From NCBI RefSeq assembly GCF_036507355.1, contig NZ_AP027877.1: DNA of 64,000 nt. One strand, written 5' to 3'. Made by a program: the position numbers and the translations under genes. Position 1 is the first letter of the stretch, and each line of letters begins with the position of its first letter. This stretch comes from Escherichia coli. GTDB taxonomy: Bacteria; Pseudomonadota; Gammaproteobacteria; Enterobacterales; Enterobacteriaceae. Below are positions 5,370-9,551 of this stretch, piece after piece. Under the pieces are notes generated by a model, which searched no databases, was not told the DNA's origin, and saw only the letters and a program-made list of their open reading frames with translations.

Positions 5370-6383
5370 ATGAATACTGAAGCCACGCACGACCAAAATG
5401 AAGCACTTACTACCGGCGCTCGCCTGCGTAATGCTCGCGAACAACTAGGACTTAGTCAGCAGGCCGTTGCCGAGCGACTTTGCCTGAAGGTTTCCACGGT
5501 ACGCGACATTGAAGAAGATAAGGCACCCGCCGATCTTGCTTCAACATTCCTGCGCGGATATATCCGCTCTTATGCGCGTCTGGTACATATTCCAGAAGAA
5601 GAACTGCTGCCAGGGCTGGAAAAGCAGGCTCCACTACGGGCTGCAAAAGTTGCGCCGATGCAGAGTTTTTCCCTCGGTAAACGCCGCAAAAAACGCGACG
5701 GCTGGCTGATGACCTTCACCTGGCTGGTGTTGTTTGTGGTTATCGGCCTGAGCGGTGCCTGGTGGTGGCAAGACCACAAAGCTCAGCAGGAAGAGATCAC
5801 CACTATGGCCGATCAATCTTCGGCGGAACTGAGCAGTAATAGCGAGCAGGGGCAGAGTGTTCCGTTAAATACGTCGACAACTACAGACCCGGCTACAACG
5901 TCCACGCCGCCAGCGTCTGTGGATACTACCGCAACCAACACGCAAACACCTGCCGTAACTGCGCCAGCACCAGCTGTTGATCCGCAACAGAATGCGGTTG
6001 TTTCGCCTTCGCAGGCAAATGTTGATACCGCCGCGACCCCGGCACCAACGGCAGCAACAACGCCAGATGGTGCTGCGCCGTTGCCAACCGATCAGGCTGG
6101 CGTGACCACGCCGGTGGCTGATCCGAATGCGCTGGTGATGAACTTTACTGCCGATTGCTGGCTGGAGGTCACTGATGCTACCGGTAAAAAATTGTTTAGC
6201 GGTATGCAGCGTAAAGACGGTAATTTGAACTTAACCGGCCAGGCACCGTACAAACTGAAAATTGGTGCGCCAGCCGCAGTACAGATCCAGTATCAAGGGA
6301 AACCTGTCGATCTGAGTCGTTTTATCAGAACTAACCAGGTTGCGCGTCTGACCCTCAATGCCGAACAATCACCGGCGCAGTAA
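5370..6383 (+). CDS. rodZ: cytoskeleton protein RodZ (HTH, single TM, Pro/Thr/Ala-rich linker)
   Basis: 337 aa; N-terminal HTH ([21 protein letters not shown]), TM helix, low-complexity P/T/A linker. Confidence 0.9.
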
Positions 6384-6409
6384 CAGACGGGTAACGCGGG
6401 AGATTTTTC

Positions 6410-7528
6410 ATGCATAACCAGGCTCCAATTCAACGTAGAAAATCAACACGTATTTACGTTGGGAATGTGCCGATTGGCGATGGTGCTCCCATCGCCGTAC
6501 AGTCCATGACCAATACGCGTACGACAGATGTCGAAGCAACGGTCAATCAAATCAAGGCGCTGGAACGCGTTGGCGCTGATATCGTCCGTGTCTCCGTACC
6601 GACGATGGACGCGGCAGAAGCGTTCAAACTCATCAAACAGCAGGTTAACGTGCCGCTGGTGGCTGACATCCACTTCGACTATCGCATTGCGCTGAAAGTA
6701 GCGGAATACGGCGTCGATTGTCTGCGTATTAACCCTGGCAATATCGGTAATGAAGAGCGTATTCGCATGGTGGTTGACTGTGCGCGCGATAAAAACATTC
6801 CGATCCGTATTGGCGTTAACGCCGGATCGCTGGAAAAAGATCTGCAAGAAAAGTATGGCGAACCGACGCCGCAGGCGTTGCTGGAATCCGCCATGCGCCA
6901 TGTTGATCATCTCGATCGCCTGAACTTCGATCAGTTCAAAGTCAGCGTGAAAGCGTCTGACGTCTTCCTCGCTGTTGAGTCTTATCGTTTGCTGGCAAAA
7001 CAAATCGATCAGCCGTTGCATCTGGGGATCACCGAAGCCGGTGGTGCGCGCAGCGGGGCAGTAAAATCCGCCATTGGTTTAGGTCTGCTGCTGTCTGAAG
7101 GCATCGGCGACACGCTGCGCGTATCACTGGCGGCCGATCCGGTCGAAGAGATCAAAGTCGGTTTCGATATTTTGAAATCGCTTCGTATCCGTTCGCGAGG
7201 TATCAACTTCATCGCCTGTCCGACCTGTTCGCGTCAGGAGTTTGATGTTATCGGTACGGTTAACGCGCTGGAGCAACGCCTGGAAGATATCATCACTCCG
7301 ATGGACGTTTCGATTATCGGCTGCGTGGTGAATGGCCCAGGTGAGGCGCTGGTTTCTACACTCGGCGTCACCGGCGGCAACAAGAAAAGCGGCCTCTATG
7401 AAGATGGCGTGCGCAAAGACCGTCTGGACAACAACGATATGATCGACCAGCTGGAAGCACGCATTCGTGCGAAAGCCAGTCAGCTGGACGAAGCGCGTCG
7501 AATTGACGTTCAGCAGGTCGAAAAATAA
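6410..7528 (+). CDS. ispG: 4-hydroxy-3-methylbut-2-enyl diphosphate synthase
   Basis: 372 aa; conserved GcpE sequence incl. Cys cluster CPTCSR...GCVVNGPGE. Confidence 0.95.
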
Positions 7529-7529
7529 T

Positions 7530-7620
7530 AACGTGATGGGAAGCGCCTCGCTTCCCGTGTATGATTGAACCCGCATAGCTCCCGAAACATTGAGGGAAGC
7601 GTTGAGGGTTCATTTTTATA
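7530..7620 (+). ncRNA. sroE: candidate 3'UTR-derived small RNA in ispG-hisS spacer (SroE-like)
   Basis: Two hairpins (GGGAAGCG-CCT-CGCTTCCC; GAACCC...GGGTTC + ATTTTTAT) directly after ispG stop; location matches what I recall for SroE; not verified. Confidence 0.45.
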
Positions 7621-7638
7621 TTCAGAAAGAGAATAAAC

Positions 7639-8913
7639 GTGGCAAAAAACATTCAAGCCATTCGCGGCATGAACGATTACCTGCCTGGCGAAACGGCCAT
7701 CTGGCAGCGCATTGAAGGCACACTGAAAAACGTGCTCGGCAGCTACGGTTACAGTGAAATCCGCTTGCCGATTGTAGAGCAGACCCCGCTATTCAAACGT
7801 GCGATTGGTGAAGTCACCGACGTGGTTGAAAAAGAGATGTACACCTTTGAGGATCGCAATGGCGACAGCCTGACTCTGCGCCCTGAAGGGACGGCGGGCT
7901 GTGTACGCGCCGGCATCGAGCATGGTCTTCTGTACAATCAGGAACAGCGTCTGTGGTATATCGGGCCGATGTTCCGTCACGAGCGTCCGCAGAAAGGGCG
8001 TTATCGTCAGTTCCATCAGTTGGGCTGCGAAGTTTTCGGTCTGCAAGGTCCGGATATCGACGCTGAACTGATTATGCTCACTGCCCGCTGGTGGCGCGCG
8101 CTGGGTATTTCCGAGCACGTAACTCTTGAGCTGAACTCTATCGGTTCGCTGGAAGCACGCGCCAATTACCGCGATGCGCTGGTGGCATTCCTTGAGCAGC
8201 ATAAAGAAAAGCTGGACGAAGACTGCAAACGCCGCATGTACACTAACCCGCTGCGCGTGCTGGATTCAAAAAATCCAGAAGTGCAGGCGCTTCTCAACGA
8301 CGCTCCGGCATTAGGCGATTATCTGGACGAGGAATCTCGTGAGCATTTTGCCGGTCTGTGCAAACTGCTTGAGAACGCGGGGATCGCTTACACCGTAAAC
8401 CAGCGTCTGGTGCGTGGTCTGGATTACTATAACCGTACCGTTTTCGAGTGGGTGACTAACAGTCTCGGCTCCCAGGGCACCGTGTGTGCAGGCGGTCGTT
8501 ATGACGGTCTTGTGGAACAACTGGGCGGTCGTGCAACACCGGCTGTCGGTTTTGCGATGGGCCTCGAACGTCTTGTATTGTTAGTACAGGCCGTTAATCC
8601 GGAATTTAAAGCCGATCCTGTTGTCGATATATACCTGGTGGCTTCAGGTGCTGATACACAATCTGCGGCTATGGCATTAGCTGAGCGTCTGCGTGATGAA
8701 TTACCGGGCGTGAAATTGATGACCAACCACGGCGGCGGCAACTTTAAGAAACAGTTTGCCCGTGCTGATAAATGGGGTGCCCGCGTTGCTGTGGTGCTGG
8801 GTGAGTCTGAAGTGGCTAACGGCACAGCAGTAGTGAAGGATTTGCGCTCTGGTGAGCAAACGGCAGTTGCGCAGGATAGCGTAGCCGCGCATTTGCGCAC
8901 GTTACTGGGTTAA
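7639..8913 (+). CDS. hisS: histidine--tRNA ligase
   Basis: 424 aa; GTG start; class II aaRS motifs. Confidence 0.95.
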
Positions 8914-8930
8914 GGAAGGAGAAGGACAGC

Positions 8931-9551
8931 GTGGAAATTTACGAGAACGAAAACGACCAGGTAGAAGCGGTTAAACGCTTTTTTGCTGAAAATGGCAAAG
9001 CACTGGCTGTTGGGGTGATTTTGGGCGTTGGCGCACTAATTGGCTGGCGCTACTGGAACAGCCATCAGGTTGATTCTGCACGCTCCGCTTCTCTTGCCTA
9101 TCAAAATGCGGTTACCGCAGTGAGCGAAGGCAAACCGGATAGCATCCCGGCGGCGGAAAAATTTGCTGCTGAAAATAAAAATACTTATGGTGCGCTGGCT
9201 TCTTTGGAACTTGCGCAGCAATTTGTTGACAAAAATGAACTAGAGAAAGCTGCCGCCCAGTTACAACAGGGGCTGGCAGACACGAGCGATGAAAATCTCA
9301 AAGCCGTGATAAATCTGCGTCTTGCTCGCGTTCAGGTACAGCTCAAGCAGGCTGATGCCGCGCTGAAAACCCTTGATACCATCAAAGGTGAAGGGTGGGC
9401 TGCCATTGTTGCCGACCTGCGTGGTGAAGCATTGCTGAGCAAAGGTGATAAGCAAGGTGCGCGTAGTGCATGGGAAGCAGGCGTGAAAAGCGATGTTACT
9501 CCGGCACTGAGCGAAATGATGCAGATGAAAATTAATAATTTGTCCATCTGA
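8931..9551 (+). CDS. yfgM: ancillary SecYEG translocon subunit / TPR-like membrane protein YfgM
   Basis: 206 aa; GTG start; N-terminal TM then TPR-like helices; synteny hisS-yfgM-bamB. Confidence 0.85.
   Translation: MEIYENENDQVEAVKRFFAENGKALAVGVILGVGALIGWRYWNSHQVDSARSASLAYQNAVTAVSEGKPDSIPAAEKFAAENKNTYGALASLELAQQFVDKNELEKAAAQLQQGLADTSDENLKAVINLRLARVQVQLKQADAALKTLDTIKGEGWAAIVADLRGEALLSKGDKQGARSAWEAGVKSDVTPALSEMMQMKINNLSI

Follow-up and report, generated by a model that had tools for sequence, protein, structure and literature searches.

Identification of SroE in the ispG-hisS spacer

The spacer between ispG and hisS in Escherichia coli raises the question of whether its structured sequence encodes a small RNA with a function of its own or reflects the expression of the two neighboring genes. 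We analyzed this locus in a stretch of 64,000 nucleotides from contig NZ_AP027877.1 (the window), for which a reading of the sequence alone, here termed the original prediction, had proposed a SroE-like small RNA derived from the ispG 3' untranslated region (UTR). The local gene order is rlmN, rodZ, ispG, hisS, yfgM, and bamB, and the ispG-hisS region (7400-7750) was recovered from 5425 of 5426 complete E. coli genomes, with at least 99% identity in 3866 of them. The spacer and its flanks contain the following features:

6410-7528, plus strand: ispG coding sequence from the list of open reading frames (ORFs), matching NCBIfam NF001540 IspG with 528 bits (cut-off 345); parent mRNA of SroE
7528-7619, plus strand: sroE (RF00371), 92 nt, full length in Rfam; counterpart of K-12 b4761
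7628-7633, plus strand: Shine-Dalgarno sequence AGAGAA of hisS, read from the sequence; kept across Enterobacterales, as is the GTG start
7639-8913, plus strand: hisS coding sequence with the GTG start codon at 7639-7641 (TIGR00442, 523 bits)

The predicted spacer length of 110 bp was exact, with ispG ending at 7528 and the hisS GTG beginning at 7639. The ispG stop codon TAA (7526-7528) is directly followed by a second in-frame TAA (7529-7531). The covariance-model search that had been suggested as a check of the prediction was carried out on the whole window and returned a full-length match to the Rfam family sroE (RF00371; model positions 1-92 of 92) with 114.6 bits, more than twice the gathering score of 51, and an E value of 6.9e-28. 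In the curated record of K-12 MG1655, the noncoding RNA sroE (b4761) is located at 2640595-2640686 on the minus strand and has the same layout as in the window. In both cases, the first base of sroE is the third base of the ispG stop codon, and 19 nt separate its 3' end from the hisS GTG. The two sequences are identical at 91 of the 92 bases, with a single substitution (A for G at 7577) within the interior of hairpin 2. Like the family, the element is flanked by ispG (gcpE) and hisS, shares their strand, contains two hairpins and a 3' U-run, and has a minimum free energy fold that corresponds to the Rfam consensus structure.

The locus, strand, and boundaries thus agree with those of RF00371 and K-12 b4761, and there is no difference of substance. 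The spacer element is the already known E. coli small RNA SroE, which makes the proposal of a SroE-like RNA an ordinary and correct finding that is borne out by Rfam, the K-12 annotation, and the flanking genes; its proposed limits (7530-7620) deviate by at most 2 nt from those of Rfam and K-12. The ispG-hisS spacer is left without annotation in E. coli records annotated with PGAP.

Rfam matched a second family in the window, namely, the ES036 (CssrF) small RNA (RF02751) at 16098-16140 on the minus strand, with 52.4 bits and a gathering score of 37.6. This match is intergenic, between the ORFs at 15054-16019 and 16191-17573, and since the stretch is, by eye, full of REP-like palindromes (GCCGGATGCGGCG..., GTAGGCCTGATAAGCG...), it may reflect a REP/BIME element instead of a dedicated small RNA gene.

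Structure of the spacer and the predicted ispG terminator

The analysis of the predicted fold revealed three structural parts, the first two derived from folding and the last from the sequence:

7536-7558, plus strand: hairpin 1, in which 7536-7545 pairs with 7549-7558 in a perfect 10-bp stem with a 3-nt loop (CCT), at -14.7 kcal/mol
7566-7612, plus strand: hairpin 2, closed by TGAACCC (7566-7572) with GGGTTCA (7606-7612), with a variable interior
7613-7619, plus strand: U-tract TTTTTAT, at which the Rfam and K-12 sroE annotations end

Two stable hairpins, with a U-tract behind the second, had been predicted from the sequence, and both hairpins are present, with TTTTT (7613-7617) located directly 3' of hairpin 2. 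The 92-nt stretch folds at -40.8 kcal/mol, as compared with -22.45 ± 3.23 kcal/mol for 200 dinucleotide shuffles (z = -5.68), none of which was as stable.

That the hairpins are chance structures without biological meaning would be in line with the simple terminator and promoter scans of 6300-9000, which made no call at all, hairpin 2 and the hisS promoter described below included. However, hairpin 2 is a long hairpin, and it was missed because of interruptions in its stem and a loop longer than the 8-nt limit of the scan; the empty scans reflect thresholds and not the absence of a terminator or promoter. Given the result of the shuffling, the E value of the Rfam match, and the retention of the hairpins in 23 Enterobacteriaceae loci, we regard chance as refuted. 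In all of these 23 loci, a GAACCC/GGGUUC closing stem is followed by an A and a U-run, as in an intrinsic terminator, and the hairpin interiors differ in sequence and length. Hairpin 2 is therefore predicted to form the stem of the intrinsic terminator of ispG.

A hisS promoter within sroE

Transcript data for K-12 are available from a SMRT-Cappable-seq study, the supplement of which (PMC6131387) lists a primary start of hisS-yfgM-bamB at 2640641 on the reverse strand, a transcript ispG-hisS-yfgM that starts at 2641981, and full-length rodZ-ispG-hisS transcripts that start at 2642925 and 2643004. The coordinates were converted by means of the hisS start codon, as K-12 position 2640575 corresponds to 7639 of the window. 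The promoter elements that result are as follows:

7537-7542, plus strand: candidate -35 element TGGGAA of hisS, from the promoter scan across loci, separated by N17 from TATGAT
7560-7565, plus strand: -10 element TATGAT of hisS, in the linker between the hairpins, 8 nt upstream of the transcription start site (TSS) and invariant in 21 of 21 aligned spacers
7573, plus strand: primary TSS of hisS-yfgM-bamB (PMC6131387, converted), the G right after TGAACCC in the 5' arm of hairpin 2

This start site, which is taken from a single data set, implies that hisS has its own primary start inside sroE. The mapped 5' end is preceded by a sigma-70-type arrangement, TGGGAA-N17-TATGAT, in which the -35 element is a weak match to the consensus (3 of 6 positions) and overlaps the 5' arm of hairpin 1; an alternative -35 element, ATGGGA at 7536-7541, would have an 18-nt spacer. 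The label of a 3' UTR-derived small RNA that the original prediction had used is thus appropriate as to the location at the ispG 3' end and is partial in that the same DNA contains the promoter and start site of hisS. A promoter of SroE itself was also considered, composed of TTGACG (7503-7508) and AATAAT or TAATAA as the -10 element, and was rejected as unsupported, as in E. coli either the spacing or the hexamer is poor, and the resulting 5' end would not be the annotated one.

Because the long transcripts started at rodZ and ispG cross both hairpins, any termination there must be partial. The Term-seq tables of Adams 2021, which contain thresholded peak calls only, list no 3' end at the SroE terminator (K-12 264058x-264061x), and termination there may consequently be inefficient or condition-dependent. 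The same tables list 3' ends inside ispG and two inside the hisS ORF, namely, K-12 2640434 and 2640283, corresponding to 7780 and 7931 of the window on the plus strand; their distances from the beginning of the coding sequence are 141 and 292 nt, and the score of the second is one of the higher ones among the rows listed. No useful information on SroE or hisS transcript ends was obtained from the Cappable-seq supplement of 2016, the Rend-seq annotation paper, or the TERMITe supplements.

Conservation of the spacer across Enterobacterales

The comparative set consisted of 80 hisS loci from different species. In all 80, ispG is located directly upstream of hisS, with spacers that range from 13 to 411 nt. 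At the Rfam threshold, sroE was detected in 19 loci, all from Enterobacteriaceae sensu stricto, whereas the scan of 38 loci belonging to other families yielded no match. In 74 of the 80 species, which extend from E. coli to Vibrio, hisS begins with GTG, an unusually stable non-ATG start.

The alignment of 21 Enterobacteriaceae spacers revealed four invariant blocks: TGGGAAGC, GCTTCCCGTGTATGAT(T)GAACCC, GGGTTCATTTTT, and the Shine-Dalgarno/start region. Over 23 Enterobacteriaceae loci, conservation is concentrated in the promoter elements, the hairpin 2 closing stem, and the U-run. Both the sequence and the length of the hairpin 2 interior are free to vary, and the Enterobacter version of hairpin 2 is a plain 7-bp terminator hairpin with a bare 5-nt loop. 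The stem of hairpin 1 is nearly invariant, with one compensatory change from G-C to U-A. Over the 21 orthologues, 94.6% of the cells in the closing stems are paired, and two pairs change on both sides, which was matched by 15 of 500 shuffles; covariation is thus weak, and the stems are kept as sequence more than as structure. The promoter scan detected T(T/G)GGGA-N17/18-TATGAT in every Enterobacteriaceae locus, which indicates that the unpaired linker of the Rfam model corresponds to the -10 region and discriminator of hisS. No variation was seen in the 3' arm of hairpin 1 despite its location in the promoter spacer, suggesting that hairpin 1 itself is under selection.

Outside the Enterobacteriaceae, the spacers of Rahnella, Serratia, Yersinia, Hafnia, Edwardsiella, Brenneria, Pectobacterium, Dickeya, Photorhabdus, Proteus, Morganella, Budvicia, and Arsenophonus contain an unrelated terminator-like first hairpin and, inside a second hairpin, a near-consensus promoter TTGAAx-N18-TATAAT that ends 31-38 nt before hisS. 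In the alignment of 18 outgroup species, invariance is confined to TTG, TATAATC, and the Shine-Dalgarno/start region, which is the signature of a conserved, predicted hisS promoter. The supplements of Yersinia differential RNA-seq studies list hisS expression and no TSS. As judged from these alignments, the hisS promoter was apparently relocated between enterobacterial families, from the hairpin loop (TTGAAx-N18-TATAAT) to a position just upstream of the hairpin (TATGAT).

Neither promoter type and no SroE was detected in the nine Erwiniaceae loci scanned (L033, L035-L037, L039, L040, L043, L044, and L046) or in the spacers of the Vibrionaceae loci L060-L082. The spacers of the scanned Vibrionaceae and Orbaceae loci and of several Erwiniaceae are too short for SroE, with some Erwiniaceae/Vibrionaceae spacers of only 13-30 nt. 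In lineages with short or promoterless spacers, hisS is presumably cotranscribed with ispG or has its promoter inside ispG.

Several species carry insertions of about 75-300 nt in the spacer (L007:2316-2500, L049:2256-2500, L075:2090-2500, and L055:2261-2500). They are located in the loop of hairpin 1 in Pseudocitrobacter, inside hairpin 2 in Klebsiella sp. BIGb0407, and in the promoter region in Photorhabdus caribbeanensis and Yersinia thracica, and the flanking parts of SroE or of the promoter are intact. Three of these insertions contain sequence resembling ...GCCAAC(G/A)...GCAACTTGAAG.ATGA.GGGTATA, which we take to be ERIC/IRU repeats.

SroE as the probable terminated 3' end of the ispG mRNA

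Considering the location of the hisS promoter within the element, we find it probable that SroE is the stable, terminated 3' end of the ispG mRNA, made from DNA that also bears the hisS promoter, and that it is mainly a by-product. Transcripts from the rodZ and ispG promoters would fold both hairpins, with hairpin 2 and the U-run acting as a leaky intrinsic terminator for ispG, and the terminated RNA would be trimmed at or near the ispG stop codon to leave a 92-nt fragment with a hairpin at each end, the stable SroE. The same DNA would serve as the hisS promoter, with the -35 element in the 5' arm of hairpin 1, the -10 element TATGAT in the linker, and the start at G7573. RNA started there would not contain the GAACCC arm and could therefore not form the terminator stem, so that it would run into hisS-yfgM-bamB. 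The partition function is consistent with this scheme: GGGUUC is fully paired in the read-through RNA and has only weak alternative partners in the RNA started at 7573, the leader of which folds at only -12.8 kcal/mol. Termination at hairpin 2 in vivo, the generation of the SroE 5' end by processing, and the role mainly as a by-product are what we infer from these data. Vogel et al., who described the discovery of SroE in 2003, are said to have found that it is processed from the gcpE/ispG mRNA, and its 5' end reportedly arises by processing as in small RNAs of the CpxQ/SroC type.

The origin of SroE as a terminated ispG 3' end in promoter-bearing DNA would account for the conservation pattern and also, as detailed below, for the constitutive level of SroE, the absent targets and phenotypes, and the requirement scored in transposon libraries. 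The weak -35 element, the empty promoter scan, and the Term-seq tables with no 3' end at the terminator count against it, and it does not fully explain why hairpin 1 would be under selection. Terminators with an overlapping downstream promoter are a general arrangement without a named family; the ispG-hisS locus likewise has a leaky terminator between two genes, with the hisS start nested in the terminator hairpin, and the outgroups place the promoter in the hairpin loop.

Alternative functions of SroE

According to a different explanation, SroE is a trans-acting 3' UTR-derived small RNA that is cut from the ispG mRNA, binds Hfq or ProQ, and pairs with target mRNAs. Its terminator is common to the parent mRNA, as in known small RNAs of this class such as CpxQ (from cpxP) and SroC (from gltIJKL), both processed and, like SroE, located at an mRNA 3' end with a shared terminator. 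In the literature, SroE is detected in all RNA-seq conditions examined and is among the Hfq-associated small RNAs of nitrogen-starved E. coli, but its expression is constitutive, with a level unchanged across nutrient conditions, and biofilm, motility, and fimbriae were all unaffected when it was overexpressed. A 2018 study that still termed SroE "uncharacterized" reported weak binding in vitro to the ligB mRNA, whereas the other nine of ten predicted targets were not bound in vitro, and a 2022 review of 3' UTR-derived small RNAs does not mention SroE. In the sequence, the only conserved unpaired stretch, GTGTATGATT, corresponds to the -10/discriminator/TSS region of hisS, with no independent seed evident. 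The interior loop of hairpin 2 lacks conservation, and the tail UUUUUAU contains just 5 U, with no (ARN)x motif reported. Unlike CpxQ and SroC, SroE has no validated target, no independent conserved seed, and only a short U-tail, and it contains the promoter and start of the downstream gene. A trans-acting function is unlikely in our judgment, although the Hfq association and the ligB binding lend it some probability.

In all Enterobacteriaceae, a terminator-like hairpin immediately precedes hisS, an essential tRNA synthetase gene, and must be passed by ispG-derived transcripts that reach it. This arrangement would also fit a cis-acting leader or attenuator that tunes hisS by T-box-like sensing of tRNA-His or by conditional terminator read-through. 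Barquist 2013 (PMC3632133) found SroE to be required in Salmonella transposon libraries and, by analogy with T-box leaders (RF00230), which are likewise structured RNAs with a terminator upstream of tRNA synthetase genes, proposed a cis-regulatory T-box-like hisS leader. This requirement is, however, accounted for by the hisS promoter, because insertions would disrupt it or be polar on the essential gene. Moreover, the hisS-specific transcript starts at 7573, past hairpin 1 and the 5' arm of hairpin 2, and so is without most of SroE. A permissive Rfam scan of 7350-7750 with E values up to 10 retrieved sroE alone and neither T-box nor other leader families, and no conserved specifier or T-box sequence was seen; a specifier would be expected in the interior of hairpin 2, which shows no conservation and is reduced to the bare loop in Enterobacter. 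In the attenuator survey of Naville & Gautheret 2010, hisS attenuators were reported only for Firmicutes and a few other taxa. SroE thus differs from T-box leaders in the lack of a model match and of conserved specifier or T-box sequences and in the start of the hisS transcript inside the element, and we consider a cis-acting leader improbable, although attenuation could still apply to the read-through fraction.

Two further mechanisms of this kind were inspected and rejected. An antiterminator was suggested by the sequence GGGAAGCG, which occurs twice (7538-7545 and 7594-7601), so that either copy could serve as the pairing partner of the 3' arm of hairpin 1; this alternative pairing is specific to Escherichia, as the second copy is absent in Citrobacter (GGGTTAGCG) and in every other genus outside Escherichia. 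A leader peptide of the his operon type was considered for the ORF at 7536-7568 (MGSASLPVYD), which contains no His codon, starts with ATG, CTG, or TTG depending on the genus, and has lost its frame in three genera. This 10-codon ORF on the plus strand (ATG...TGA) extends across hairpin 1 as far as the first bases of hairpin 2; it begins 8 nt after the ispG stop, has no obvious Shine-Dalgarno sequence, and loses its frame where the linker is 1 nt shorter. It is probably incidental.

There is a small chance, lower than that of a cis-acting leader in general, that the ispG terminator in SroE is conditional, with read-through into hisS being tuned and SroE abundance serving as the read-out. Tuning could, for example, be exerted by the binding of HisRS or tRNA-His or by ribosomes that complete the translation of ispG, 10 nt before hairpin 1. 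If so, SroE would represent a new kind of synthetase attenuator and not a by-product. A hisS promoter that is nested in the ispG terminator and has moved during the evolution of Enterobacterales is better supported than a conditional terminator.

Implications

Since sroE is already present in Rfam and in the K-12 annotation, its identification in the window carries little weight as a discovery. The presence of the hisS promoter and the ispG terminator in the same DNA, and not a function of the RNA, can explain most of the sequence conservation on which the family is defined, and this overlap provides an ordinary explanation for transposon screens that score SroE as "required." SroE should accordingly not be treated as a regulator without target evidence. 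The added value of the present analysis consists in the rereading of this conservation as an overlap of terminator and promoter and in the finding that the hisS promoter has apparently changed its place from one enterobacterial family to another.
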